From contig CAZSDT010000001.1 of the NCBI GenBank assembly GCA_964605745.1, positions 27,368-64,229 of the forward strand: a stretch of 36,862 nt of DNA, in the 5' to 3' direction. The translations under genes were made by a program, and so were the position numbers. This DNA is from an uncultured archaeon (lineage in GTDB: Archaea; Iainarchaeota; Iainarchaeia; Iainarchaeales; JAAZKV01). The notes under the pieces are model-generated. The model saw only the letters and a program-made list of their open reading frames with translations, was not told the DNA's origin and searched no databases. Below are positions 1,092 through 33,034 of this stretch, in pieces. Each line of letters begins with the position of its first letter. Within the stretch, counting starts at the first letter, position 1.

Positions 1092-4000
1092 TTATTGTCC
1101 TGATTTGGTTGCAGTTGGTTTCCAAAAGTGGTGTCGTGGTGAGTAAATATCTCCTTTCTTTGCCAAATCTTCTATTGTTGTTTTTACTCGTTCTTCATCT
1201 ATTCCTTTTTCCATTGCTTTGAGTACAATTTCTTCTAATGGAACCATATCAATTCCAGTTCCCATTTGTTCTTTAATTATGTGCAAAATTTGACTTATCG
1301 CATTTTGTTTTGATTGTGTTATTCCTGTTGTAACTATATCAATATCAATTCTTCCTGTTTCAGGATCAGTTACTGTTTCTTCTAAAGATTTTTTCACAAG
1401 TCGAATTGCTCGTTCTGCATCCTGTATTTCTACAGTATCGCTTAATCGAACTCTCGCACTTGCTTCTGATAATCTTACTAATCCTTCTAATTGTCTTGCG
1501 GTTGCAGCGTATGCTCCTTGTTGTCTTCCTTGGTCACGCAGTCCGACATAAAAATCAGATATTCTATTAACCGCTTCTTCGCTTAATATTGGAAAACATT
1601 TTTGTCTTGCAAGTGAAACATATTTTTTAAATATTTCTGCATCAATTATTGGTTTTGTTCTTTTATCAATATCTTCTTTTTCTTCTTTTTGCAATGCTTG
1701 TCCTTTTTTTCCATATTGCATTAATTTTTCTCCACTTTGGTGTGTCTTTAGAATGTGTTCTGCAATTTTTGTGTCTTGAGTTTTATCTAAAACATCTCTT
1801 ATCATGAAAAATAAATCAAATCTTGAAATTAGTGATGGAGGTAAATCAATTTGTTCTAAAAATGGAGTGAATTTATCAAACCGGGAATATTTTGGATTTG
1901 CTGCTGCCAAGAGTGAAGTATCTGCTTTGAATCTTGAAACAATTCCTGCTTTTGCAACTGAAATAATTCCTTGTTCCATTGCTTCGTGTAATGCACTTCT
2001 ATCTTCTGGATCCATTTTATCAAGTTCATCTGCCATGCAGACTCCCCCCGAACTTAGTACTAATGCACCTGCTTTGAGAGTCCAACCTCCTTCTCCAAAT
2101 TCATCTTTAACAGCAGTTGCTGTTAGTCCAGCTCCCGAAGTTGTTTTTCCTGAAACGTAAATACTTTTGGGAGCAATTTTGTGTGCGGCTTGTAGTAGTT
2201 GTGATTTTCCACAATTGTGTGAAATTATTCCATTTGCAATAAATCTATGCGCACTTGGAACTTCAATATCATAAACGTCTTCAAGTCCGTGGTCAATTAT
2301 TTTTACGATTTTTTCACTTCTTTGTTGTCCAAATCTTTCGTGTTCTTCTGCATTTTTCATTGCTTGTTTCATTTTTTCATTTTTTTCTTTTGAAATAAAT
2401 CCTATTTTTTTACCAAATTTTTTAATTGATTCTCCTCTTCGTATCATTAAATTATTTTCTCCAACTATTCTTGCGTGTATGCTGTAACGGAGTAAAAGTA
2501 CTTGTACATCTCTTAGCATTTCAATATTTTTTGCTTTTAGTGAAACTGAGCGATTTCCTCTTCCTTTACTAAAAACACATCCATCTGCTTGGTAGAGCCA
2601 TTTTAAAAATTCAGTTACAACAAGATTTCCTGATTCCATTATTATTTTTGGAACCCTTTTTTCTCTTAGCATTAATAAGTTGTGTGCAATATCTTTTGAG
2701 TGTAATCCTACTCTGTGCATAATTTCATTTTTTCCTTTTTGTTTTTTTGATGTGATTGATGGTTTTATTTTAAATAAATTTTCACTTATGGTTACAAGTT
2801 TTGGAAGAATTTCTTTTTCGTGGTCAGCAACAACTAAATAGGCTTCTTTTTTTCGTACCCCTCCATCTCCAAGCATATATCCTAATAGTGCTCCTAATTC
2901 TGGAGTAACTTTTTTTGGTAGTGTTCCTTTAAATTTTGGGCCAAGTTTATTTTCAACATTAACAAAATTTGTTTCCACGGATGCGCTAATAGTACAGGGT
3001 ATATAATTTATTACTGCTACTTTGTCTTGTGGTTTAAATTCATCAAGTCTTTTCCATTCTCTTTTTATTTTTCCATTTTGTTTGCTTACACAAAGTAAGG
3101 GGTGGTCATGTGTTCCTTTTATGCTTTTTCCGCTTTCAGTAATTATTTCCATAACTTTTTTTTGTGGATAATAAAAGAAGGTTGTAGCTGTTTTTCTGCA
3201 TTTTCCACCTTCGCCTGTAAGAACTTGAAAATCTACTTCTTGTAAATGTTTTTCTCCCAAATCTTCTATCCTTTTTATTGCTCCATTTCCCATTACAACT
3301 CTTTCATCTCCAACAAGACACCCAGGGTCACCGATTAACAAAACGTGAATATTTCCTCTGATTTTTTGATCATTAGGTAAGTGTTTTGTTACTCCTCCAA
3401 ATAATTCAAGTGCAATACTTTCTTTTACAACATCATGTCCGTAAATTGCGGGGGCAATACTTTGTGCTAGCATTTCATAAATTTTTGGATCTTTTGAAAG
3501 TTTGTTTATTGCAATTTCTTCTTCTTTAGTAATATCTACTTCAGAAAATTCTTTTGCAGTTTCTTCTAAGGAATTTACTTCCAAGAATCTACCATAAACA
3601 GTTTTTTTATCTTTTTGCGGTGGAACTAATCTTAGTACTCCAACAAATTTTGTTTTGTCTCCTGCTGCAACTTTATTTACTAAATCATCACTAACATAAA
3701 CATCCAAATAAGTTGCTTGTTCATTTCCTTTTAATTTTTCCAAAGTTTCTTGTACTTGAACTTTTTGGTAATCAATAAATTCACTTTTTTCTTCTTCTAA
3801 ATTAAATTCTTTTGAATGACATTCGCACATATTAGGGGGGTGGAGTTGTTGTTTGTCTTGTGGAATTCTATAAACGTTTCCACATCTGCGACATTTCCAA
3901 ACAGCCATTGTTAATTTTGGTAATACATCTGTAATTTGTCTTACAAGTCCTTCAACACTTAACATTTTTCCAATGTGTTTTGAACCAACATTTCTTACAC

Positions 4001-4319
4001 TAATTTCTCTATCTCTTGGCATGTTGCTGAATCGCACATGCGGTTTGAATGTTTCAGTAGTAAGTGTGGGTAAGTGAATGTTTTGAATTGCTGTGTGTGC
4101 TGCTTCTAAAACTGCATCAGGACTATCTACTAATTCATCAGCTAAAGTAGGATCAAATTTTTCAAGTGTTTTAAAATCAACTGTTACGCTTCTTGTTTCA
4201 GGATAAGATTCAACAATTCGTTCTATTTGTTTTTTGTATTCAGTGTTAAAGAATTCTTCGAATCGTTCTACAAAAGGAGAGCCGTCTGACTTTTCTATTT
4301 CTTCTAAATTTATATCCAT
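1092..4319 (-). CDS. mcm: MCM replicative helicase, with an in-frame intein splitting the Walker A motif
   Basis: N-terminal Zn motif 'CRRCG...CECH'. Walker A is split as 'LLIGDPG|C...HN|CGKSQLL'. Walker B 'CMADELDKM', 'SRFDL' arginine-finger region, C-terminal winged-helix tail. The 1075-aa length is explained by a 369-aa insert. Confidence 0.95.
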   Translation of the reverse strand: MDINLEEIEKSDGSPFVERFEEFFNTEYKKQIERIVESYPETRSVTVDFKTLEKFDPTLADELVDSPDAVLEAAHTAIQNIHLPTLTTETFKPHVRFSNMPRDREISVRNVGSKHIGKMLSVEGLVRQITDVLPKLTMAVWKCRRCGNVYRIPQDKQQLHPPNMCECHSKEFNLEEEKSEFIDYQKVQVQETLEKLKGNEQATYLDVYVSDDLVNKVAAGDKTKFVGVLRLVPPQKDKKTVYGRFLEVNSLEETAKEFSEVDITKEEEIAINKLSKDPKIYEMLAQSIAPAIYGHDVVKESIALELFGGVTKHLPNDQKIRGNIHVLLIGDPGCLVGDERVVMGNGAIKRIEDLGEKHLQEVDFQVLTGEGGKCRKTATTFFYYPQKKVMEIITESGKSIKGTHDHPLLCVSKQNGKIKREWKRLDEFKPQDKVAVINYIPCTISASVETNFVNVENKLGPKFKGTLPKKVTPELGALLGYMLGDGGVRKKEAYLVVADHEKEILPKLVTISENLFKIKPSITSKKQKGKNEIMHRVGLHSKDIAHNLLMLREKRVPKIIMESGNLVVTEFLKWLYQADGCVFSKGRGNRSVSLKAKNIEMLRDVQVLLLRYSIHARIVGENNLMIRRGESIKKFGKKIGFISKEKNEKMKQAMKNAEEHERFGQQRSEKIVKIIDHGLEDVYDIEVPSAHRFIANGIISHNCGKSQLLQAAHKIAPKSIYVSGKTTSGAGLTATAVKDEFGEGGWTLKAGALVLSSGGVCMADELDKMDPEDRSALHEAMEQGIISVAKAGIVSRFKADTSLLAAANPKYSRFDKFTPFLEQIDLPPSLISRFDLFFMIRDVLDKTQDTKIAEHILKTHQSGEKLMQYGKKGQALQKEEKEDIDKRTKPIIDAEIFKKYVSLARQKCFPILSEEAVNRISDFYVGLRDQGRQQGAYAATARQLEGLVRLSEASARVRLSDTVEIQDAERAIRLVKKSLEETVTDPETGRIDIDIVTTGITQSKQNAISQILHIIKEQMGTGIDMVPLEEIVLKAMEKGIDEERVKTTIEDLAKKGDIYSPRHHFWKPTATKSGQ
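2214..3320 (-). mobile_element. Intein (369 aa) with LAGLIDADG homing-endonuclease domain, inserted in the MCM P-loop
   Basis: Starts with Cys ('CLVGDERVV', codon TGT at 3318-3320). Block B 'GTHDHPLL'. Two LAGLIDADG-type motifs ('LGYMLGDGGV', 'FLKWLYQADGCV'). C-terminal 'VYDIEVP...FIANGIISHN' followed by +1 Cys (Asn codon at 2214-2216). Removing it restores GDPG-CGKSQ. Confidence 0.9.
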
Positions 4320-4613
4320 ATATCCCCAACTCTTCTACAAACTTTTACTTAGTAAGTGCTCTTTAAATCTTTCTAATCCTTTTTGCCGACGTATTTGTTT
4401 TTGGGGCAAAACTTTTTTTAATTATGTTGCCTTTTTTAAAGTCTTGCTCCGGTTTTAGAGCCATTTTTGAATTTTAAAGAAAAAAAGTGTTGGGGCACAC
4501 CAAATAACCATTTTGGCATGTTTTTTTTTCTTCGCATAATATAGGGGATAGGTTTGATTAATACTTTAAGGGTTTGGATTCTAAACCATCTTCCTTTTTG
4601 AAGAAAAAGAAAT

Positions 4614-5063
4614 TCAAACCATGTAGAGGTTTGCTTTTATTGCTTTAGCAGTTTCTATTAATTCTAATGGTTTAGTTTTTCTTCGCTGTTCATCAATTCT
4701 AATGTTATCTGCGTGTTTTCTAGGGATTAAGTGAAAGTGTGTGTGCATTATACATTGTCCCGCAGCTTTGCCATTGTTTTGAATTAAATTTATTCCTTCT
4801 GCATTAGTGGCTTTTAGTATTGCTTTTGTTAGTTTTTGCATAGCTTTGGATATTTCAATTAAGTAAGGTTCTTCAATATCAGTTAAATCCTTAAAATGTT
4901 TTTTTGGAATTATCAAAGTGTGTCCATTTAATTCACCCGCAGGATTGATGTCAAGTAGTGCCATTACTTTTTCGTTTTCAAATACGATTTCGCAAGGAAT
5001 TTCGTGTTTTGCGAATTTGCAAAACAAACACTCTTTTTCAAAGCCAGTCATTTTATCTTTCAC
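4614..5063 (-). CDS. HIT (histidine triad) family nucleotide hydrolase/transferase
   Basis: Histidine triad 'HTHFHLIPR', N-terminal 'CLFCKF' motif, ~150 aa as is typical for HIT/Hint proteins. Confidence 0.9.
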   Translation of the reverse strand: MKDKMTGFEKECLFCKFAKHEIPCEIVFENEKVMALLDINPAGELNGHTLIIPKKHFKDLTDIEEPYLIEISKAMQKLTKAILKATNAEGINLIQNNGKAAGQCIMHTHFHLIPRKHADNIRIDEQRRKTKPLELIETAKAIKANLYMV

Positions 5064-5155
5064 CTTTTTTATTTGAATAAGTTAAGTGTTAAGTTCTTTT
5101 AATGTTTTTTGGTGTGGGGCAAAATTAGAATGTAGATTAATAAATTAATTTTTTT

Positions 5156-5188
5156 AAAAAAAGATAAAAAACTGGGGTTTCCCCCAGT
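5156..5188 (-). terminator. Terminator-like hairpin plus U-tract downstream of the 5203-5898 gene
   Basis: Perfect 7-bp stem actgggg(5171-5177)/ccccagt(5182-5188) with loop tttc. On the minus strand it is followed by TTTTTATCTTTTTTT. Confidence 0.5.
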
Positions 5189-5202
5189 CTTCAAAATTAT
5201 AT

Positions 5203-5898
5203 TTATTCTTTCACTACTTGTGCTAGGATACTATATTGTGTTGTTGTTAGTGCGAATAATACTCCGCCCGTTATTATTGCTGATAATATCCATCCTAATA
5301 CTGGAATCATCGCTAATATTACACTTATTATTCCTGCAACTAGTGATAGTACTATTGCATAAACGAAGATTACTATTAGTGATATTATGTAATCCATAGT
5401 TAATGCGTTTTTTACTACACTTCCAATTGCGAAAGCTGCGCCTATTTTTCCTTTCTTCAACCATTTCATTATTGCCATTGGCAGTAAGAATACTGCTATT
5501 AGTAGAAGGATTCCTCCAACTAAAATTATTGGTCCGCCAATCATTATGCTTGGCAATATTGAATTCATTATTGCAGTCATGTCGCTCGGATTAGTCAGTA
5601 TTGTTGGTAATGCTGTCATTACTGCGCTTCCAATTCCTATTGCAATTATTATTGCTGGAATTATCATGTAAACTATTTGGATTATTATCATCATTATTAA
5701 TTTTATAATGTAATCCATTACATCATCTATTGCCCATGCTCTTAACTTATTTTTTTTGCTCATAACATCTTCGGCTGTTTTTGCACCGTATCCACTTACA
5801 AGCATACTAACTAGAGGTATTGCGCCTATTATTGCTCCAATTCCTAAAGTTTTTAAGTCAGAGAATGGTTTTTTCATTGCTTCTACGTAATCTACCAT
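5203..5898 (-). CDS. Polytopic membrane protein of unknown function (DUF4013-like by recollection)
   Basis: 231-aa ORF that is almost entirely hydrophobic helices. The N-terminus 'VEAMKKPFSD...LGIGAIIGAIPLV' resembles archaeal DUF4013 proteins. The family assignment is unverified. Confidence 0.6.
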   Translation of the reverse strand: MVDYVEAMKKPFSDLKTLGIGAIIGAIPLVSMLVSGYGAKTAEDVMSKKNKLRAWAIDDVMDYIIKLIMMIIIQIVYMIIPAIIIAIGIGSAVMTALPTILTNPSDMTAIMNSILPSIMIGGPIILVGGILLLIAVFLLPMAIMKWLKKGKIGAAFAIGSVVKNALTMDYIISLIVIFVYAIVLSLVAGIISVILAMIPVLGWILSAIITGGVLFALTTTQYSILAQVVKE

Positions 5899-5990
5899 TT
5901 AGTTCACTCTCCATTTTTCTTTGAAGCTTTTTGTGCTGCGTTTGATTCAATTGAATAAGCCCCAAAGTATTTAGAAGTAGAGTTATTCTG

Positions 5991-6287
5991 CTATTTAACG
6001 CTTTCTTTAAGGGTTGCTAATATTGTTCGTGCTAACTCGCGGGCTTTAGTTTCGTCCCTTTCTCCTCGAATTAGAAGTTTTCCTGAAGGGAATAAAGAAA
6101 TTGTGGCATAATTAAGTTTTAGCATTAAAAGTACTTTTGTTTTAACTTCAACAGTTGCTGTGCTAGTAGTTATTTCTTCGCAAGCCTTTTCTAAATCAAT
6201 TATGACTTGTTTTTTTGGTAAAAATTCATAAGCCATTTTTGTTCGGCATGGTTTTCCAGTGTACTGTGCAATTTCCATATTTTTCAA
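5991..6287 (-). CDS. Small alpha/beta protein with a TBP-repeat-like segment; function unknown
   Basis: 98-aa ORF. 'ISLFPSGKLLIRGERDETKARELA' resembles the TBP-fold repeat (IFxSGKxxxTGAKxxxxA). Lies immediately downstream of the ThiI-like gene. Confidence 0.5.
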   Translation of the reverse strand: MKNMEIAQYTGKPCRTKMAYEFLPKKQVIIDLEKACEEITTSTATVEVKTKVLLMLKLNYATISLFPSGKLLIRGERDETKARELARTILATLKESVK

Positions 6288-6302
6288 CTCAATTAAATTT
6301 AT

Positions 6303-6968
6303 TTATTTACATATATTTACTTGGTTTAAGAATTCTATTTTTTGATTTGTATCTTCAATAGTTATTTTTTTAAGTACTCGTTCTATTAGTTCTTCCATTT
6401 TGCATTTTTCTTCTTCAATTAGTAATTGTTCTATTGTGCTTTGTGTTCGTGGATTTCCGCTTGCAAGTGCATCACACATTTCCGCTCCTTTGGATGTTTC
6501 AAAATAATTATATTTTTTGCTTAAATCAATTATTTCTTGTTTACTATTAAATAAAACTGGTCGAAGTATTTCTATTTTTGTGCTTTGGTTTATTGTATTT
6601 AAATTACTTAAAGTTTGTGAAGATACTTGGCCTAAACTTTCCCCGCTAATCAAATAATTAATATCTTTTTCATTAGCAATTTTTTCTGCAACTCTCATCA
6701 TGAATCTTTTAATTAAAATAAAATAATATTCTCGATAACTCTTATCTGCAATTTCCTTAAATTCTTCTCCTGAGTTTACAACAATCATTTCTTTTAATCC
6801 AATCAACTTACATAGAGCAATTGATTTTAGTTTTGGGGTGGCATCGGTGAATGGTTCTTGGGAGAAGTGAATTGCACTTAATTTGTATCCTTTTTCGATT
6901 GCAAGTTTTCCAGCAACTGGTGAATCAATTCCTCCTGAAATTAGAAGGAGTGCTTTTTTAGTTTTCAT
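6303..6968 (-). CDS. Stand-alone ThiI-like PP-loop ATP pyrophosphatase (tRNA sulfurtransferase catalytic domain, no THUMP domain)
   Basis: PP-loop 'LLISGGIDSPVAGKL'. 'SGESLGQVSSQTL' is typical of ThiI. Only 221 aa, so it lacks the N-terminal ferredoxin-like/THUMP part. Confidence 0.8.
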   Translation of the reverse strand: MKTKKALLLISGGIDSPVAGKLAIEKGYKLSAIHFSQEPFTDATPKLKSIALCKLIGLKEMIVVNSGEEFKEIADKSYREYYFILIKRFMMRVAEKIANEKDINYLISGESLGQVSSQTLSNLNTINQSTKIEILRPVLFNSKQEIIDLSKKYNYFETSKGAEMCDALASGNPRTQSTIEQLLIEEEKCKMEELIERVLKKITIEDTNQKIEFLNQVNICK

Positions 6969-8272: not shown

Positions 8273-9013
8273 TTATATCTTTCCTTCTAAGTATTTTTTC
8301 CTTTTTGCTTCTGGAAATTTTTCAATCGCATATCTTAGCATTGTTCTTGGCATTAATTTGTAATTCTCTTTTAAAAAATTTTCTTCAGTATTTAAATCTC
8401 TTTTGCCGATTTCGCGCAGCATCCACCCTACAGCTTTTTGAATTAAATCGTGTTCATCACAAAGAAGAATTTTTGCAATACTCAAGGATTGTTCAAAATC
8501 TTTTCTGTAAATAAAATAATAACAACTAATCATTGCAACTCGCTTGTCCCAAATTAAATTTGAGATGGATAATTTGTTTAAAATTAGAATTTCATTTCTG
8601 TGTTCAAACAAATATTTCCCAATAATATGGTGTGAACTTAAATCAACTAAATCCCAATTGTTAATATATTTTGTATTTTTTAAATAAAAATTAAAGATTT
8701 TTTTTTGCTCTTCTTCTGTTGTTTCTTTGTTTTCAAATTTCAAAACAAGTATAAGTAATGCACATAATCTTTCTTCATGTATTTTTGAGTGAAGTAATTG
8801 TTCTGTTTCTTCTAAACTCATTTTTTTAAAATATTTTTTTGCAATAGTTCTTGTAATTGGAACAGTTATTCCGTAAAAAATGTCTCCATATCCGTATTCG
8901 CTTTTTTTGGTTTTGAAGAACTTTTCAAGCACTTTTTTCTTTAATGGGTTTTGCAAGTCTTTCATTTCTTTCTTTATACTTTTTAAGGTTTGCATAACTT
9001 TATTGCTATGCAA
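8273..9013 (-). CDS. DNA alkylation repair protein (AlkD/AlkC-like HEAT-repeat glycosylase family)
   Basis: All-helical 246-aa protein. 'FFKTKKSEYGYGDIFYGITVP', 'NNWDLVDLSSHHIIGKY', 'WDKRVAMIS' and 'KAVGWMLREIGK' match the DNA_alkylation family pattern as I recall it. Confidence 0.7.
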   Translation of the reverse strand: MHSNKVMQTLKSIKKEMKDLQNPLKKKVLEKFFKTKKSEYGYGDIFYGITVPITRTIAKKYFKKMSLEETEQLLHSKIHEERLCALLILVLKFENKETTEEEQKKIFNFYLKNTKYINNWDLVDLSSHHIIGKYLFEHRNEILILNKLSISNLIWDKRVAMISCYYFIYRKDFEQSLSIAKILLCDEHDLIQKAVGWMLREIGKRDLNTEENFLKENYKLMPRTMLRYAIEKFPEAKRKKYLEGKI

Positions 9014-28014: not shown

Positions 28015-28695
28015 TTAAGCAAAGTTTTGTTGGAAGATTTTAATTAAAGTTGGTTCAAAACATATTTTTTTAGTATAATCCAAAACAGTTTTATTTGAGT
28101 TAATTGTTTCTTCAATCATTTCTTTCTCCGTTTCATAAACTATTTTTTGCATTACTTCATTCAAAAAATAATTGTCCATGCGTGCTTCTATTATTTTGAC
28201 TTTCTCAATTCTGCATAAATCTTTTATTCGAACATAATATTCAGTATAGTTCCATTTTTTGCAGACAAAGTTTTTTTGTATCAGTCCCCAGTTGTGTTTT
28301 ACAAATTGTTTTAGTTTTTTTGTTTTGAAAAACAAAATTTCTCTATTTTCATTAATCAGCATAGTCCAATTTGATTTATTTAATAATTCTTTTTTTCTTA
28401 CTCTAATTTTTATAGTATCTTTGCCCAGTTCTCCAAAGCAAAATTTTTGATCAATTGAAATTCCTTTGTAGTAATAATCAATTCCAAATTCACTGTCTTC
28501 AACAGGATTCATTTCGCTTGGTAGGATTTGTAAAAGTTCTTCTCGCATTTTGTTTTGCTTAAAAAAATTAGGGTTTAGTTTTTGTTGATTATATTTAAAA
28601 AGATAAGATTTTTTGCGTGGTATTTTTTCAATTTCTTTTTCGTTAGGCAAAGGACAGGAGAAATTCAATCCAATTATTGGTTTCACCAATTGCAT
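28015..28695 (-). CDS. Uncharacterised protein, paralogue A (related to 32288-33034)
   Basis: The ~80-aa core 'ILPSEMNPVEDSEFGIDYYYKGISIDQKFCFGELGKDTIKIRVRKKELLNKSNWTMLINENREILFF' aligns with paralogue B. Confidence 0.75.
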   Translation of the reverse strand: MQLVKPIIGLNFSCPLPNEKEIEKIPRKKSYLFKYNQQKLNPNFFKQNKMREELLQILPSEMNPVEDSEFGIDYYYKGISIDQKFCFGELGKDTIKIRVRKKELLNKSNWTMLINENREILFFKTKKLKQFVKHNWGLIQKNFVCKKWNYTEYYVRIKDLCRIEKVKIIEARMDNYFLNEVMQKIVYETEKEMIEETINSNKTVLDYTKKICFEPTLIKIFQQNFA

Positions 28696-28724: not shown

Positions 28725-28733
28725 TTTTGTTAT
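28725..28733. repeat. Target-site duplication, left copy (TTTTGTTAT)
   Basis: Identical 9-mer abutting the outer end of each terminal inverted repeat (second copy at 32274-32282). Confidence 0.85.
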
Positions 28734-28751
28734 GGGCTTGTTTAAAAAGTT
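28734..28751 (+). repeat. Terminal inverted repeat, left (GGGCTTGTTTAAAAAGTT)
   Basis: Perfect 18/18 match to the reverse complement of 32256-32273. Confidence 0.9.
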
Positions 28752-28892
28752 CTTAGAAAGGGCTTTTGTTTAGAAAGTAGGTTTTCCTCAAGTGGTCTTT
28801 TTCCGATAGCTTTAAAAGGAGTTATGAATACCTATTCATTATGTTTTGGATAAATGTTCAGAACTCAATAATTTGAAAAGGAGGCGAAAAAT

Positions 28893-29168
28893 ATGCCAAG
28901 AGGAGATAAAACAGGGCCAGCAGGAACTGGGCAAATGACTGGAAGAGGAATGGGGTACTGTGCAGGGTACAATACACCTGGATACATGAACCCTTGCTTT
29001 GGAAGAGGTTTTGGGCGAGGATTTGGGAGAAGAAGGTTTTGGACAACCCCTCAAGAAATGGTTCAAGCGTATAAAGAACCCACTGAAAAAGAACTTTTAA
29101 GTGAGTTAAAAGCTCAGAAAGCAGAAATAGATAAAGCTATTAAAGAGCTTGAACAAAAAAAGAAATAG
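28893..29168 (+). CDS. DUF5320-family protein
   Basis: 'MPRGDKTGPAGTGQMTGRGMGYCAG' N-terminus plus a C-terminal coiled coil 'ELLSELKAQKAEIDKAIKELEQ'. AAGGAGG Shine-Dalgarno. Confidence 0.85.
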   Translation: MPRGDKTGPAGTGQMTGRGMGYCAGYNTPGYMNPCFGRGFGRGFGRRRFWTTPQEMVQAYKEPTEKELLSELKAQKAEIDKAIKELEQKKK

Positions 29169-29180
29169 AAGGCGAGATAA

Positions 29181-29474
29181 TTGGTTCGACCAAGAATACC
29201 AAGAATAATTGACTTTGAACCTGGAACAACTTACTTCAAGCCTGCAGGAATTCCGTTAAGGGTGCTTGAAGAAGTTGTTCTTTCTTTTGAAGAAGGAGAA
29301 GCACTACGCCTAAAAGAAGTTGAAGGATTAGACCAAACAGAAGCCGCGAAAAAAATGCGAATATCCCAACCAACATTTTTTAGAATACTCTCAACAGCAA
29401 GAAAAAAAGTGGCTGAGGCAATAATTAATGGAAAAGCAATCAAAATAGAACGGGGGAATGTAAATTATGAATAA
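29181..29474 (+). CDS. DUF134 (UPF0251) predicted DNA-binding protein
   Basis: 'RPRIPRIIDFEPGTTYFKPAGIP', 'EEGEALRLKEVEGLDQTEAAKKMRISQPTFFRILSTARKKVAEAIINGKAIKI' (sigma-70 region-4-like HTH). TTG start. Confidence 0.85.
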   Translation: MVRPRIPRIIDFEPGTTYFKPAGIPLRVLEEVVLSFEEGEALRLKEVEGLDQTEAAKKMRISQPTFFRILSTARKKVAEAIINGKAIKIERGNVNYE

Positions 29475-30423
29475 ATTAAAAAAGAAGAAAAAATTTAGTC
29501 TAATTTTTGGTATCGGCATAATAATAGTTATTTTATTTTTAGCGGTGTTTTCATACAATCTTTACTTAAATAAACCGACACAACCACAAGGATTAATGAT
29601 TCTTATTGAATCAACAAGCAAACCAACAGGATTATTAGAAATGGTTAGCCAAATGAAAGAAAGAAACATTTCAGGACTTTTAATGGTCACTCCTGAGTTT
29701 GTTCAAGCAAATTGCGAAACTGTAAAAAAAGCTCTTGACACGGGAAATATAGAAATAGTTGCATCTAATGTCGGTGCTCCTTTTTGGGGTATTCCTTATG
29801 AAGAACAAAAATCCAGAATAATCCAGATGCTTGATGGAATAGAATCATGTACTAGAAAGAAACCAAGAATAATATCTTCCAGATATATGGCTTCAGACAT
29901 GAACACTGTAAAAGTAGCTGAAGAACTTGGGATACCTTATGTAACTGCAAGAGGAACAACTGGAACAAAAGCAACAGTTTACCAACCAGAGGGATACCAC
30001 GTAAAAATATTATCTGTTTCATTGATAGAATTAGTGCCTTTTGAATATGGGAGCCTTTGTGATTATTCTTTCTATGAAAGGGCTGGAACCCCAAAAGATA
30101 TGTTGGGGGAATTAAATAGGGCGTTAGAACCTTTAACTGATAAAGAAAAAGCCCGATTTGGGGAACACCAAAGAATAACTCCAACAACTCACACCCATAT
30201 TGGAGGATATCTAAAACAATGGAATGACATGTGGCTTAATTTCTGGGATTCCTCCCAAATTAAATGGGTGCCATTGGATGAATTTATGACAGAACCTGAT
30301 TGGGCCATTCCACTATGGCAAATCCCAATAAACCAGAATAATCCATATACTGTTGAAAAAATAAGGCCCTTGGTGCCCTATGAAGAAGAGGAAACTGTGG
30401 GCAACATTTGTGCTGTAAATTAG
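29467..30423 (+). CDS. N-terminally membrane-anchored protein; possibly a deacetylase/glycoside-hydrolase-like barrel
   Basis: Poly-Lys plus one TM helix, then a ~270-aa soluble domain. 8-nt overlap with the DUF134 gene. Only weak resemblance to polysaccharide deacetylases; the canonical NodB motifs were not seen. Confidence 0.6.
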   Translation: MNKLKKKKKFSLIFGIGIIIVILFLAVFSYNLYLNKPTQPQGLMILIESTSKPTGLLEMVSQMKERNISGLLMVTPEFVQANCETVKKALDTGNIEIVASNVGAPFWGIPYEEQKSRIIQMLDGIESCTRKKPRIISSRYMASDMNTVKVAEELGIPYVTARGTTGTKATVYQPEGYHVKILSVSLIELVPFEYGSLCDYSFYERAGTPKDMLGELNRALEPLTDKEKARFGEHQRITPTTHTHIGGYLKQWNDMWLNFWDSSQIKWVPLDEFMTEPDWAIPLWQIPINQNNPYTVEKIRPLVPYEEEETVGNICAVN

Positions 30424-30440
30424 GTTTTAGATTTTAGGGC

Positions 30441-30462
30441 ATGGCGACAATAAAATCGCCAT
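30441..30462. terminator. Hairpin between convergent genes inside the transposon
   Basis: atggcga(30441-30447)/tcgccat(30456-30462), 8-nt loop. A-rich/T-rich flanks on both strands. Confidence 0.45.
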
Positions 30463-30501
30463 ATTCCTACAAAAAACCCGAGTAAATATTTCAAGATTTT
30501 T

Positions 30502-30711
30502 TTACCAATCTTTTTTCTTTTTGGGGTGCCAGAATATTCTGTTGTTGCTTCGGTAGGCTGATAGTGTTCCTGTTTGTTTCATTTGGTTTAAGTATTTTTT
30601 TGCTGTTGGCCATGTCATGTGTGTTTTTGTAGCTATTCTTTTTGTGGATAGTGGCCTTCTTTGTGCTTGTAATAGGCGTTTGATTGCATGTTCGTAATCC
30701 TCTTTACTCAT
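30502..30711 (-). CDS. Small winged-helix DNA-binding protein
   Basis: 69 aa. 'RPLSTKRIATKTHMTWPTAKKYLNQMKQTGTLSAY' HTH plus wing. Confidence 0.6.
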   Translation of the reverse strand: MSKEDYEHAIKRLLQAQRRPLSTKRIATKTHMTWPTAKKYLNQMKQTGTLSAYRSNNRIFWHPKKKKDW

Positions 30712-30940
30712 TTTTTCTCACATACTCAATTGTTAATTCTGAATCCTCTATTGGCGTTGGTTTTTGAGCTATTTTCAAATGAAATTTTATCATATCGCCT
30801 TTTTTCATTTTTTTTATTTCAGATACTACTTTTGGAATTCTTATTAAAAATTGTTTTCCATCATAGGACATTGTCGCTATTTCTTCTTCTTTATCAAAGT
30901 CTTGTTCTGCTACTTTATTAACTATTTCTCTTTGAGTCAT
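30704..30940 (-). CDS. Small AbrB/SpoVT-like (swapped-hairpin) protein
   Basis: 78-aa sub-ORF starting at 'MTQREIV'. 'DGKQFLIRIPKVVSEIKKMKKGDMIKFHL' resembles the AbrB/MazE-type pattern. The longer track ORF (to 31402) runs antisense into the transposase gene and was rejected. Confidence 0.55.
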   Translation of the reverse strand: MTQREIVNKVAEQDFDKEEEIATMSYDGKQFLIRIPKVVSEIKKMKKGDMIKFHLKIAQKPTPIEDSELTIEYVRKNE

Positions 30941-31021
30941 ACGATAATCACTTTTATTAGTTATTTTAGTGTACGAACTTATATTTATAATTAACTTTAA
31001 AGCGTACGAAAAAAGCAAAGC

Positions 31022-31029
31022 TTTATAAA
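31022..31029 (+). promoter_or_regulatory. TATA box (CTTTATAAAT) for the transposase gene
   Basis: Same 10-mer as the eL15 promoter, 44-51 nt upstream of the GTG at 31073. A second box (atatttataa, 30981-30990) faces the AbrB-like gene. Confidence 0.45.
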
Positions 31030-31072
31030 TACTTTGCGAGTAGAATATAGTATATCGTACGATTGAGTGTAA

Positions 31073-32257
31073 GTGATTAAAGTGGAAGAAACCAAGTTTA
31101 TCTGTTTCCGTTGCGGAAGTGAAAAAATAGTTAAAAGAGGAAAGCAATTTAATACTAAAAAAACTACGTGGAAGCAACGCTGGTATTGCAATAATTGTGG
31201 TTTCAAGTTTGTGGATAAAAAACAGGTTTTGTGTGATTCCTATGAACCGCCAAAGTTTGAATACCAACCAAAGCCAATCGTTCCAACTGACTGGGCCAAC
31301 TATAATCAAGCACAGATAAATGAAAAAACCATGTTTTTGGATATTTTGAGTGGTGTGCTTGATTGTTTTGCTTTTGAGCAAGCAAAAACAAACGGTCGAC
31401 ATTTAATCAATACAAAAGATGTTTTGTTTGGAATGCTTATAAAAACTCATAATAAAAATTCTTCAAGAAGAACAATCTCTGACCTTAAACTAATGAAAGA
31501 ATTACATTATGCTGAACAAATACCTTGTTTTTCTACTTTGATGAATTATTTTAACAATTCGAGTTTTACACCAATTCTTGAGAAAATGGTTGAATTAACT
31601 GCTGTGCCGTTAAAAGGAGTTGAAATTGATTTTGCTTCTGATGCAACAGGGTTTTCCACTTCGCAGTTTGGTCGTTGGTTTGATGAGAAATGGGGCGAAG
31701 AAAAAGAAAAAAGAATCTACAGAAAACTACACGCAATGACAGGGGTTTACAGCAATGTAGTTACTCATTGTATAATTACTGAACAAGAAGGTAGGGGCAC
31801 AGCAGACACAACACAATATAAACCACTACTTTACAAAACAGCAATTAACTTCAAAATGAACGAAGTTAGCGCAGACATGGCTTACTCGTCAAGAGAGAAC
31901 CTTGAAGCAACTGTACAAGTGGGTGCTTTACCTTACATTCCTTTCAAATCAAATGTTACTGGTGGAAACAACGGGTTGGTTTGGAGAAAGATGTATTTGT
32001 ACTTCAAAGACAAACCACAAGAATTTTTTGAACATTATCATAAACGTTCTAATGTTGAAACAACTTTCTCAATGATAAAACAGAAATTTAGTGGCTTCTT
32101 GATGACAAAAACATTAATTGCAAACACAAACGAAATATTATGCAAAGTAATCGCACACAACATTTGTTGTTTAATCTCAGCTTATTACGAATTAGGATTA
32201 GAAAAGGCTTTTTGCACAAAAGCCCAAGAAACCAATAAAATTTCAATTTTAGTCTAA
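31073..32257 (+). CDS. DDE transposase, IS4/IS5 superfamily, with an N-terminal zinc ribbon
   Basis: 'CFRCG-x24-CNNCG' Zn ribbon. DDE candidates 'IDFASDATGFS', 'VSADMAYSS' and 'YHKRSNVETTFSMIKQKF' (Y-x2-R-x3-E-x6-K signature). GTG start. Confidence 0.88.
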   Translation: MIKVEETKFICFRCGSEKIVKRGKQFNTKKTTWKQRWYCNNCGFKFVDKKQVLCDSYEPPKFEYQPKPIVPTDWANYNQAQINEKTMFLDILSGVLDCFAFEQAKTNGRHLINTKDVLFGMLIKTHNKNSSRRTISDLKLMKELHYAEQIPCFSTLMNYFNNSSFTPILEKMVELTAVPLKGVEIDFASDATGFSTSQFGRWFDEKWGEEKEKRIYRKLHAMTGVYSNVVTHCIITEQEGRGTADTTQYKPLLYKTAINFKMNEVSADMAYSSRENLEATVQVGALPYIPFKSNVTGGNNGLVWRKMYLYFKDKPQEFFEHYHKRSNVETTFSMIKQKFSGFLMTKTLIANTNEILCKVIAHNICCLISAYYELGLEKAFCTKAQETNKISILV

Positions 32258-32273
32258 CTTTTTAAACAAGCCC
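32256..32273 (-). repeat. Terminal inverted repeat, right
   Basis: AACTTTTTAAACAAGCCC is the reverse complement of IR-L. Confidence 0.9.
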
Positions 32274-32282
32274 TTTTGTTAT
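32274..32282. repeat. Target-site duplication, right copy (TTTTGTTAT)
   Basis: Identical to 28725-28733. Confidence 0.85.
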
Positions 32283-32287
32283 TAATT

Positions 32288-33034
32288 TCATCTTCTTCTA
32301 GCTCTAATTCTATTTTTTAAAAAATTAGCTGTTCTTTTTTTTGCGTTTTGTAGTTTATTTTTTGGAATAAATCTTTTGTAAAAAATATTATTAAAATTTC
32401 CTGTTTTTGTTTTTGCAGTCGTGTTTTGTATTTGTACTTTATCTAAAATTCTTTCCATTCTTTCTTGTAACTTGGCAAGATCTCTTGTATGTAAATTGTG
32501 TCTATTTTTTGCTAATTGTTGAAGAGGAATTATTATACTTAATGGTTTAACTCCTTCTTTTGCATATAAATCACTTAACTTTATTCTTGCTGGTACAAAC
32601 AAAATATTTCCAGTTCTTTTGTCTCTTTTAAATTTTTGTTCAATAATTCTTTCTGCACTCTTAGGGTGTTTTTTTAAGTAATCCCTTATTTTTTGTGTTG
32701 GAAAAAAATCAATTCTGTCTTGGTGCATTACCATTGTATAATCTGATTTGTTAATGAGTTCGTTTTGGTTTAATCTCACTCTAATAGAATCTTTTCCGCC
32801 ATAATAAAATCCAAATTTTCTATCTATTTTAATGCCTCTAAAAATATAATCAATTCCTGTGTATTTGTCATTTACTGGTTTCATTGTATTTGGTAGTATA
32901 GAATCAACGAGGGTTAGTACTTTGTATTCCATTTGTTGTTCTGTTTGAATTGGTGCTTGTTGTGAGGTGTGGTTAATTGTTTTTTTTATTACTTTTTGAT
33001 GAAAACCTTGTTTTTGTTGTGACATAATTCTCAC
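32288..33034 (-). CDS. Uncharacterised protein, paralogue B, with a strongly basic C-terminus
   Basis: Core 'ILPNTMKPVNDKYTGIDYIFRGIKIDRKFGFYYGGKDSIRVRLNQNELINKSDYTMVMHQDRIDFF' aligns with paralogue A. 4-nt overlap with trpS. Confidence 0.75.
   Translation of the reverse strand: MRIMSQQKQGFHQKVIKKTINHTSQQAPIQTEQQMEYKVLTLVDSILPNTMKPVNDKYTGIDYIFRGIKIDRKFGFYYGGKDSIRVRLNQNELINKSDYTMVMHQDRIDFFPTQKIRDYLKKHPKSAERIIEQKFKRDKRTGNILFVPARIKLSDLYAKEGVKPLSIIIPLQQLAKNRHNLHTRDLAKLQERMERILDKVQIQNTTAKTKTGNFNNIFYKRFIPKNKLQNAKKRTANFLKNRIRARRR

Follow-up and report, generated by a model that had tools for sequence, protein, structure and literature searches.

The segment at positions 28734-32273 of the window (the whole 36,862-nucleotide stretch of DNA analysed) is very probably an autonomous, 3540-bp transporter IS that resides in an archaeal chromosome and belongs to the IS5 family, within it to an IS903-like lineage. 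The host chromosome is probably that of a DPANN archaeon. The segment has entered several sites as a whole, and 9 bp of target were duplicated each time. Its features, with the genes on either side, are as follows.

28015-28695, minus strand: downstream member of a tandem paralogue pair, target context outside the element
28725-28733: left copy of the 9-bp target-site duplication, TTTTGTTAT
28734-28751, plus strand: left (cargo-side) terminal inverted repeat, GGGCTTGTTTAAAAAGTT
28760-28778, plus strand: left subterminal second repeat-like site, GGGCTTTTGTTTAGAAAGT, 26 nt inward of the tip; pairs with 32208-32225
28893-29168, plus strand: cargo gene 1, DUF5320 protein, 91 aa (Pfam PF17253, 81.7 bits)
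29181-29474, plus strand: cargo gene 2, DUF134 HTH protein, 97 aa (Pfam PF02001, 82.3 bits)
29467-30423, plus strand: cargo gene 3, membrane-anchored protein of predicted CE4/NodB (polysaccharide-deacetylase) fold, 318 aa (weak PF01522 match)
30502-30711, minus strand: 69-aa winged-helix protein, DUF7342-like (weak wHTH matches)
30704-30940, minus strand: 78-aa protein, divergent from the transposase and its conserved partner
30941-31072: divergent control region with four (C)GTACGA boxes and two TTTATAA (TATA-like) boxes
31073-32257, plus strand: transposase, 394 aa, N-terminal CxxC…CxxC zinc ribbon and DDE domain
32208-32225, minus strand: right subterminal second repeat-like site, GGGCTTTTGTGCAAAAAG on the minus strand, 48 nt inward of the tip, within the transposase C-terminal coding region
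32256-32273, minus strand: right (transposase-side) terminal inverted repeat, overlapping the transposase stop codon
32274-32282: right copy of the 9-bp target-site duplication, TTTTGTTAT
32288-33034, minus strand: upstream member of the tandem paralogue pair

Ends, copies and relatives of the element

A preliminary description of this DNA had claimed perfect 18-bp repeats and an abutting 9-bp duplication. Both are exact, as confirmed from the sequence and with a repeat finder: the two arms match at 18 of 18 positions, the 9-mer lies flush against the outer side of each, and the outer repeat edges delimit 3540 bp. Given the base composition, the chance of the 9-mer matching is ∼5×10−5. The insertion was also said to split two tandem paralogues, and indeed the proteins encoded on either side are 48% identical over 77 aa (E 4×10−23), with the stop codon of the upstream member 5 nt from the duplicated 9-mer.

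The proposal that the whole 3.5 kb forms a single mobile unit, and that other copies should be sought, was borne out. The same 3540-bp unit is present in JGI Ga0565070_000249 and Logan SRR12447078, flanked on both sides by ATTAGTATA, a different 9-bp duplication which is the one recorded for loci L001/L002, in a genomic context that differs from that of the window. Two further distinct right-hand junctions of the element were found, one in L003/L008/L009 and the other in L006. Only 3 SNPs separate four copies of the unit (∼99.9% identity), which points to recent activity. Exact-sequence look-ups with TrpRS and with the proteins flanking the window insertion returned nothing, and no empty site was found for it.

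The anatomy of relatives supports the same extent. Five of them have both ends and a perfect 9-bp duplication of their own: L011 (4497 bp, GAAAGCCGG), L090 (5498 bp, GTAATTTTC), L091 (3705 bp, CACTATCTT), L094 (4350 bp, CTTTCAAAA) and L015 (2967 bp, CTTTAAAAA). With the window and L001/L002, seven insertions thus carry such a duplication. Both ends were also mapped in L092 (4791 bp) and in L171 and L173 (∼2.8 kb each), where the duplication was not checkable; for the last two no matching flanking duplication was found, possibly as a result of chimeric repeat contigs. The L011 element has a terminal repeat identical to that of the window and a transposase 73% identical. In all archaeal relatives the second repeat-like site lies at the same offset, giving a two-site end architecture, and the overlap of the right repeat with the transposase stop codon recurs in relatives as well. 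Sizes range from 2.8 to 5.5 kb; the ∼45 nt of the left end and the transposase core are kept, and the cargo is unrelated, comprising an IetS-like defence protease, STAND/AAA ATPase-wHTH genes, a toxin-antitoxin pair or tRNA-Leu. In the sister pairs L171/L173 and L091/L092, the core is 91-92% identical and the first 46-52 nt 93-94%, and no cargo similarity was detected within either pair. Bacterial cousins also show 9-bp duplications and upstream passenger genes, and extra genes are carried by all clade members with mapped ends (nine archaeal, three bacterial).

Transposase, associated genes and cargo

The transposase matches PF01609 (DDE_Tnp_1 type) with 47.1 bits, against a cut-off of 23. Its top NCBIfam model is NF033579 (IS5_2), at 112.7 bits; as the equivalog cut-off of 140 is not reached, the lineage is a distant one and family membership holds at the superfamily, or distant, level. 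On the same model IS903B scores 357.6 bits, L015 142.8 bits, which passes 140, and L011 113.4 bits. BLASTP against IS903B gave an E value of 4×10−9, with 25% identity over 193 aa, and the catalytic residues D190, D268 and E329, together with the motif Y322-x2-R325-x3-E329-x6-K336, align with their IS903B counterparts. All are invariant among 26 homologues; the Y-x2-R-x3-E-x6-K signature reported earlier is indeed present. The protein is ∼70-90 aa longer than IS903-type transposases owing to its N-terminal zinc ribbon, which the zinc-domain model NF050000 matches with 25.8 bits, under its cut-off of 28. Terminal repeats of the IS903 group are ∼18 bp long and begin with GGC. That of the window element begins with GG and is identical to the IS903B repeat (GGCTTTGTTGAATAAATC, from L174) at 12 of 18 positions, the repeat of L173 at 14 of 18. 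Judged from its sequence, the transposase is therefore an IS5-family, IS903-like enzyme whose DDE/YREK catalytic core is intact and homologous to that of IS903.

An earlier guess placed the element with IS4 or IS903-like members. The IS903 side of it stands, since the best model is shared with IS903B; the IS4 side does not, the YREK motif being present but the ends beginning with GG rather than CA/CT and IS4 HMMs reaching only ∼15 bits. An IS1595 or IS1 assignment was likewise rejected, no catalytic model of either being found among matches at E≤0.01. So was a composite transposon, as there is one transposase gene and the left end consists of just ∼45 nt of terminal sequence.

By this reading, the zinc-ribbon/DDE transposase would bind the terminal and subterminal sites and pair ends 3.5 kb apart, then cut at the GG tips and join them to target DNA whose strands are cut 9 bp apart. 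If IS903 is a guide, the chemistry would be cut-and-paste, possibly also replicative.

Five passenger genes had been counted initially. Three of these (DUF5320, DUF134 and CE4-fold) are upheld, and the genes for the 78-aa and 69-aa proteins, conserved with the transposase in relatives, look like genes of the element itself. The 78-aa protein has 13 homologues, 76-92% identical. Where the neighbourhood was looked up, the gene adjoins a transposase of 393 aa (L171 and L173) or a truncated transposase ORF (L170 and L172); in all four, a DUF7342-like gene of 69-70 aa comes after the 77-aa gene. No Pfam family matched the 78-aa protein, and its AlphaFold2 model was poor (pLDDT 54). The control region aligns without gaps and with few substitutions with L171, L172 and L173, the transposase DNA being ∼72% identical. 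We infer that the boxes in this region act as operators and promoters. The 78-aa and 69-aa proteins are probably regulators of the element: they may bind the four GTACGA boxes flanking the two TATA-like boxes, and in this way govern the production of the transposase as well as their own.

The true cargo is the DUF5320–DUF134–membrane CE4-deacetylase-fold trio. The AlphaFold2 model of the third protein has a pLDDT of 82.8 and begins with a helix (residues 2-34); in Foldseek it retrieved 3rxz (E 1×10−9, TM 0.58-0.64), and also ArnD 8t0j. Homologues 56-85% identical occur across DPANN, CPR and Zixibacteria.

The preliminary description had contrasted a G+C-rich passenger region with its host. There is a modest excess, 34.6% G+C in the element versus 30.4% in the remainder of the window, and GC3 exceeds the host mean (0.189 +/− 0.036) by 2 SD or more in 4 of the 6 element genes; the element nevertheless lies inside the window range of 23-37%. 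Because the transposase is raised as well, the difference marks the whole element as foreign, not the cargo alone. The Shine-Dalgarno contrast fared less well: GGAGG does precede the first gene, but GGTGA, taken as the host norm, is found at only 5 of 36 host ORFs, so that this argument, in an archaeon moreover, has little weight. The L011 element has 35% G+C inside flanks of 51%.

Alternative explanations

One could suppose that the transposase belongs to a standard IS of ∼1.3 kb, whose inner left repeat was lost or unused and which mobilised host DNA once, via a fortuitous repeat 2.3 kb off (one-ended or surrogate-end transposition, ISEcp1-type). Many contigs with relatives' transposases are indeed only 1.3-1.6 kb long, and the trio is an ordinary chromosomal module elsewhere: locus L175 has it without transposase or repeats, a DUF5320 family gene adjoining a 319-aa homologue of the CE4-fold protein, and a DUF134 gene 63% identical to that of the window. 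Host DNA was therefore taken up at some point. Yet the left end copies the right repeat perfectly, with the two-site architecture seen in every relative whatever its cargo, and the same left ∼45 nt are joined to unrelated cargo in sister elements. As the preliminary description had noticed, the window has no repeat near the transposase start: the best match within 30424-31110 is 11/18, a level attained by 96% of random host segments of equal length and thus not a repeat. The short contigs L180 and L181, which extend 75-91 nt beyond the transposase on its upstream side, have none there either, nor do the nine relatives with mapped ends. Contigs with an identical transposase all run leftward into the same interior sequence, up to the contig limit; no short, cargo-less form was found among them, and the short ones are truncated copies of the 3.5-kb unit. 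This constancy of the left end across cargoes, together with the absence of an inner repeat, indicates a dedicated end, and leaves the use of a fortuitous one a slim chance. We favour instead that the element has kept its own left end and that the trio was captured from a chromosomal module and is merely carried along.

It is still less likely that the block is the inner part of a larger mobile element, such as an integrated plasmid, virus or genomic island. The slightly raised G+C fits this idea, as do the neighbours of L001, which include a tyrosine integrase and a methyltransferase. The window flanks, on the other hand, are housekeeping or host genes (the paralogue pair, TrpRS, TrpB-like, SerRS, MCM), identity between the window and L001 ends exactly at the repeats, and no close relative was found on IMG/VR viral contigs. 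The least credible option, to which we give almost no weight, is that of a chromosome with a domesticated transposase, the repeats being an intergenic or structural motif of common occurrence and the 9 bp matching by coincidence or through a local duplication. Host and 9-mer are both AT-rich, and unrelated viral contigs contain chance occurrences of the 18-mer. Within the window, however, it has only 2 sites with up to 3 mismatches allowed, against ∼1.7×10−6 expected occurrences of a specific 18-mer from base composition, and the identical block in another context with a different 9-mer duplicated, as well as the five relatives each with its own perfect duplication, refute this explanation.

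Comparison with known systems

IS903 generates a 9-bp target duplication. The window element resembles IS903/IS903B (IS5 family; E. coli, plasmids) in its transposase superfamily, best model and aligned DDE and YREK residues, as well as in 18-bp terminal repeats starting with GG and the length of the duplication. In contrast, IS903 is 1057 bp long with a single gene, instead of 3540 bp and six genes, and its host is bacterial (E. coli) rather than archaeal; IS903B lacks the extra ∼70-residue N-terminal CxxC…CxxC zinc ribbon, and its ends lack the subterminal second site that the window element has at each end. Unit transposons of the Tn3 family are also non-composite, with terminal repeats and integral passenger genes. 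They encode a transposase of ∼1000 aa and a resolvase acting with a res site, and have ∼38-bp repeats and 5-bp duplications; none of these is found in the window element, with its 18-bp repeats and 9-bp duplications.

Enlarged derivatives with extra genes are known in the IS231 subgroup of the IS4 family, which carries passenger DNA and reaches 5400 bp (PMC2266710). Like the window element, these have a DDE/YREK transposase without frameshift. However, IS4 family ends are 5′-CA/CT and duplications 8-13 bp, 10-12 bp for IS231 (PMC2266710), whereas in the window element the ends begin with GG, 9 bp are duplicated and the highest-scoring HMM is of IS5 type.

IS derivatives with passenger genes are termed transporter IS (tIS) by the authors of ISfinder/TnPedia (PMC9330008; PMC7986276), an example being ISDsp3 of the IS6 family (cited in PMC7986276). 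In these, one IS-type transposase and IS-type repeats surround genes that have no part in transposition, and the element moves in its entirety, with one target duplication. The same is seen here: the trio lies inside the repeats, and copies have different flanks and duplications of their own. The window element is thus a transporter IS, of a kind already known, and a new variant of it. Most tIS described so far stand alone in families whose other members lack cargo, whereas here extra genes are present in every mapped clade member and cargo is replaced between sisters.

It is quite conceivable, if a little short of probable, that these elements form a coherent and so far undescribed IS903-like clade. 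Its members would have a zinc-ribbon or SWIM N-terminus, two sites for the transposase at each end and, in many cases, small DNA-binding regulators of their own. Cargo would be the rule in such a clade, with repeated refilling of a defined slot that runs from the left ∼45 nt to the core. If this is true, the clade could be a main vehicle by which gene modules pass between DPANN archaea, and perhaps also CPR bacteria, that differ greatly in genome composition.

Boundaries, insertion site and mobility of the 3540-bp unit

The left terminal repeat of the element, GGGCTTGTTTAAAAAGTT at 28734-28751, is the exact reverse complement of the right arm at 32256-32273, and the 9-mer TTTTGTTAT abuts the outer edge of both arms (28725-28733 and 32274-32282). 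Both the 18-bp repeats and the 9-bp target-site duplication reported in the preliminary description were thereby confirmed, the unit between measuring 3540 bp. Given the base composition, a given 18-mer is expected by chance ∼2×10−6 times per window, and the match of a given 9-mer has a p of ∼5×10−5. No further copy of the 18-mer was found in the 36.9-kb window, with up to 3 mismatches allowed. The element carries the following genes, the right repeat overlapping the stop codon of the last one.

28893-29168: DUF5320 protein, cargo
29181-29474: DUF134 HTH protein, cargo
29467-30423: 318-aa CE4-fold protein, cargo
30502-30711, minus strand: 69-aa winged-helix protein
30704-30940, minus strand: 78-aa protein without family
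31073-32257: 394-aa transposase

Two tandem minus-strand genes flank the insertion, which fell into the short stretch between them, 5 nt past the stop of 32288-33034 and 29 nt ahead of the start of 28015-28695. The two share 48% identity over 77 aa and are paralogues, so that a tandem pair was indeed split, as proposed earlier. Their common part is a ∼77-aa central block only (ILPxxMxPVxDxxxGIDYxxxGIxIDxKF…), and no Pfam or NCBIfam family was found for either. On the minus strand, the reconstructed empty site reads …TGA-AATTA-ATAACAAAA-GAAATAATT…. No record was found when the two flanking paralogous proteins and TrpRS were looked up by exact sequence. The window is archaeal chromosome of ∼30% G+C, encoding MCM helicase, exosome RNase PH subunits, SerRS and TrpRS. 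An intein that includes a LAGLIDADG homing-endonuclease domain (Pfam Intein_splicing, residues 341-702; LAGLIDADG_3, residues 568-640) splits the MCM gene (1092-4319, minus strand) and is a second selfish element within the window. Rfam and tRNA scans of the window found no RNA gene inside the transposon, the sole find being a tRNA-Lys at 35.5 kb.

The whole 3.5 kb moves as one unit, as had been suspected. The exact transposase sequence was retrieved from 18 contigs belonging to several sequencing projects, and a 99%-identical one lies on a 24.5-kb JGI contig. In the JGI and Logan copies (L001 and L002), the full 3540-bp unit sits between a methyltransferase gene and unrelated genes, with a 9-bp duplication on both sides, ATTAGTATA, that differs from the window's. 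Two additional right-hand junctions were seen on other contigs (TTTTTTTAAGC… in L003, L008 and L009, TTAAAAAAAG… in L006), and similarity between the window and the other insertion loci ends at the repeats. The search for further copies suggested in the preliminary description thus yielded these insertions, and the four full copies differ at only 3 positions, of SNP type, in 3540.

A shorter mobile form, bounded by a repeat close to the transposase, finds no counterpart in these data. All contigs with the identical transposase run upstream into the same interior, up to the contig limit. The best degenerate copy of the repeat within 30424-31110 matched at 11/18 positions, which is chance level, and no repeat was found upstream of the transposase in two short transposase contigs (L180, L181), nor next to it in the archaeal relatives L011, L090, L091, L094, L015, L092, L171 and L173. 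The absence of a transposase-proximal repeat, already noted, therefore holds.

Carriage by a virus or plasmid was also considered, and rejected. The nine exact matches to the 18-mer in IMG/VR correspond to two unrelated conserved viral sequences, matched by chance, and have no subterminal site. Viral relatives of the transposase reach at most 53% identity on short fragments and ∼36-44% for longer matches, and none of them matches the zinc-ribbon N-terminus.

Transposase, element ends and family placement

The transposase contains the PF01609 (DDE_Tnp_1) domain. Its best NCBIfam model is NF033579 (“IS5_2”), with 112.7 bits, under the curated cut-off of 140; IS903B transposase, taken from an annotated E. 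coli copy, scores 357.6 bits, and clade member L015 scores 142.8, above the cut-off. BLASTP against IS903B gave 25% identity over 193 aa (E 4×10−9), and in this alignment D190, D268 and E329 line up with the three acidic residues of IS903B, which we take to be D121/D193/E259 of the 307-aa protein in the literature numbering. These three residues, as well as Y322, R325 and K336, are invariant in 26 homologues, and so are the zinc-ribbon cysteines C11, C14, C39 and C42. The N-terminal zinc ribbon, a sub-threshold match to NF050000, has no equivalent in IS903.

The YREK motif pointed out earlier (Y322/R325/E329/K336) is real, but it is common to IS4 and IS903-type elements and does not discriminate between the two. 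The choice is made by the ends and the HMM ranking: the element begins with GG, unlike IS4, whose ends begin with CA/CT (PMC2266710). Of the IS4/IS903-like placement proposed initially, the IS903 side is retained and the IS4 side dropped. The IS903B repeat, GGCTTTGTTGAATAAATC, is the same as the window's at 12/18 positions, and as that of L173, an archaeal relative (GGCTTTGTTTATTAACTT), at 14/18. A second repeat-like site, GGGCTTTTGT…AAAAG, is present at each end, both in the window's element and in every archaeal relative. Its distance from the tip is 26 nt at the cargo end and 48 nt at the transposase end, the latter copy being part of the transposase coding sequence. The ends of IS903B, in contrast, have no second site.

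Between the 78-aa gene and the transposase lies a 132-bp control region (30941-31072). Compared to relatives whose transposase DNA is ∼72% identical, it aligns without gap and with few substitutions. It contains four (C)GTACGA boxes and two TTTATAA boxes, the latter placed ∼41-51 nt upstream, one per divergent start codon. The region may comprise two archaeal promoters and putative operators for both small proteins.

Small-protein module and variable cargo

Roughly 1900 transposase homologues were found in total; those at 45-75% identity belong to DPANN archaea (Diapherotrites/Iainarchaeota, Woesearchaeota, Pacearchaeota). Five relatives have both ends and a perfect 9-bp duplication.

Table. 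Archaeal relatives with both ends and a perfect 9-bp duplication (locus; length; transposase identity to the window's; terminal repeat; duplication)
L011; 4497 bp; 73%; 18/18 identical to the window's; GAAAGCCGG
L090; 5498 bp; 75%; GGGCTTGTGCGAAAAGT-type; GTAATTTTC
L091; 3705 bp; 66%; GGTCTTGTGCGAAAAGT-type; CACTATCTT
L094; 4350 bp; 53%; 12/16 between own arms; CTTTCAAAA
L015; 2967 bp; 45%; 15/18 between own arms; CTTTAAAAA

Both ends were also located in L092 (4791 bp), L171 (2837 bp) and L173 (2823 bp), where the flanking 9-mers either could not be compared or did not match. The two ∼2.8-kb elements, L171 and L173, have clear repeats but lack a matching 9-bp duplication. This is likely due to chimeric flanks in repeat contigs; alternatively, it may reflect recombination between copies.

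Pairwise comparisons revealed a modular structure. L171 and L173 have 91% DNA identity over ∼1.76 kb, which comprises the 69-aa gene, the 77-aa gene, the transposase and the right end; their outermost 46 nt on the left are 93% identical, and the ∼1 kb between has nothing in common. Likewise, L091 and L092 are 92% identical over 2.5 kb and 94% over the first 52 nt, and their cargoes, of 1.1 and 2.2 kb, are unrelated. The window shares 72% identity with L173 across the 69-aa gene, the 78-aa gene and the transposase, and only the transposase and the left 45 nt with L011. For the 78-aa protein, 13 homologues were found (76-92% identity), and the ones whose surroundings were inspected adjoin a transposase relative, followed by a 69-70-aa DUF7342-like winged-helix gene. 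Because this two-gene set keeps the transposase company in relatives, the five passengers of the preliminary description have to be split: three genes remain as cargo, and the other two form a module travelling with the transposase.

The 78-aa protein matched nothing in Pfam or among PDB sequences, and its AlphaFold2 model (pLDDT 54) is too poor for a fold search; an AbrB/MazE-like fold, obtained for 1 of 14 members (E 0.038), is a guess. A 232-aa ORF at 30704-31402 (minus strand) was discarded as an artefact, the 78-aa gene being extended upstream across the transposase start. In L091 (3135-3290, minus strand) and L015 (4097-4258, minus strand), whose transposases are 66% and 45% identical to the window's, a 51-53-aa ORF and ∼200 nt around it are conserved, divergent and immediately upstream of the transposase. 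This ORF, which may encode a ribbon-helix-helix-like protein, makes a module different from the window's 78-aa/69-aa pair.

Within the window's cargo, the 318-aa protein bears a membrane helix at its N-terminus, and its confident model (pLDDT 82.8) resembles CE4/NodB polysaccharide-deacetylase folds (3rxz, E 1×10−9, TM 0.58-0.64; ArnD 8t0j). It is unusually conserved, being 56-85% identical among DPANN archaea, Patescibacteria/CPR bacteria and Zixibacteria, cross-phylum values that would fit frequent horizontal transfer. Of its homologues (P0134-P0253), many have ∼100 extra residues. The cargo trio is also present on a 690-kb contig (L175), in the order DUF5320, 319-aa homologue (81% identical), DUF134 (63%). 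As no transposase or repeats were found near this trio, we read the cargo as a captured module that had existed beforehand. The G+C excess noted for the passengers exists (34.6% for the element, 30.4% for the window remainder) but is modest and inside the window's own range. GC3 gives a mild foreign signature in 4 of the 6 element genes, transposase included. The Shine-Dalgarno contrast proved weak, GGTGA preceding just 5 of 36 host ORFs. PADLOC returned nothing significant for the window's own cargo.

Cargo varies between elements. L011 (element 2107-6603) carries a 749-aa S8 subtilase (2958-5207) matching the PADLOC IetS defence models with 88 bits, and upstream a 184-aa unknown protein in place of the IetA ATPase; the subtilase gene may serve defence, carried by a transposon in an archaeon of 51% G+C. 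This element has 35% G+C against 51% for its flanks, and its duplicated 9-mer is G+C-rich; the contrast in composition indicates that the element came from another host background. AAA/STAND-like ATPases with a C-terminal winged helix are found in L090, L010 and L015, and small ribbon-helix-helix proteins in L091 and L015. L015 (element 2524-5490), from the uncultured archaeon LFW-281_4, also has a tRNA-Leu(TAA) gene (3954-4037) beside its AAA/STAND-wHTH gene, which is unusual within an IS-type transposon. The 5.5-kb L090 is inserted ∼190 nt from an archaeal SRP RNA gene (8361-8635, minus strand; Rfam RF01857, 124 bits).

Bacterial homologues, ∼42-48% identical, have a SWIM-type N-terminus and no zinc ribbon. 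Those whose ends were mapped using multiple copies are ∼3-3.8 kb long, with upstream genes and 9-bp duplications: 3040 bp in Trueperaceae (L071, L074; repeat GGCTTTGCACAAAAAGCCC, duplications GGCGGGACG and AACCAGACC), and 3845 bp in Planctomycetaceae (L035; duplication GTGCTACTG), where a gene pair was read as toxin-antitoxin-like. One Planctomycetaceae MAG has the cousin in two lengths, 3416 bp (L036/L038, 3670-7085) and 3845 bp (L035, 3241-7085). The right end is common to both forms, and the starts are repeat-like, GGCTTTGCACCACGGAAGCC in L036/L038 against GACTTTGCACCATGAAAGCC in L035, which suggests alternative or nested left ends. Extra genes seem common in this transposase lineage, archaeal and bacterial, in what is a small, non-systematic sample.

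Proposed mechanism and significance

The unit is bounded by repeats, its copies are near-identical, its catalytic residues are intact, and its targets, AT-rich and differing in sequence, are duplicated over 9 bp on insertion. In the mechanism that we propose, the zinc-ribbon/DDE transposase would bind the terminal and subterminal sites and synapse the ends. By analogy with IS903, it would then cut at the GG tips and join them to a target cut with a 9-bp stagger. IS903 is capable of simple insertion as well as of cointegrate formation. As for the 78-aa and 69-aa proteins, they would act on the divergent control region, repressing transcription or adjusting its level. Related elements might recombine and thereby swap cargo, or the slot itself might lose old genes and acquire new ones; no recombination site for cargo replacement was found.

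Gene-carrying IS, or transporter IS, are an established category (PMC9330008, PMC7986276). As this category and the general mechanism, DDE transposition with a 9-bp duplication, are already known, the advance is incremental rather than conceptual. The occurrence in DPANN archaea of an IS903-like lineage whose transposase has an N-terminal zinc ribbon appears to be new. So do the second site at each end, the small-protein module that is conserved along with its control region, and a cargo slot refilled repeatedly, defence-like genes and a tRNA being among the fillings. None of the papers searched describes the clade; what they provide on tIS and on the IS4/IS5 signatures is limited to general definitions.

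DPANN archaea are host-dependent, and their genomes are tiny. To our knowledge, little is understood of the ways in which they gain and exchange genes, and their transposons have hardly been described. The element is a clean, recently active gene-carrying transposon in a DPANN-type genome. Its chassis recurs in relatives whose hosts differ in composition, with other gene modules, of which some are defence-like. This provides a concrete vehicle for horizontal transfer, which may explain the distribution of the CE4-fold cargo protein across DPANN, CPR and other phyla. For transposon biology, the IS903 type gains a lineage in which the transposase has an N-terminal zinc ribbon, the end sites are doubled and the element probably encodes its own regulators.
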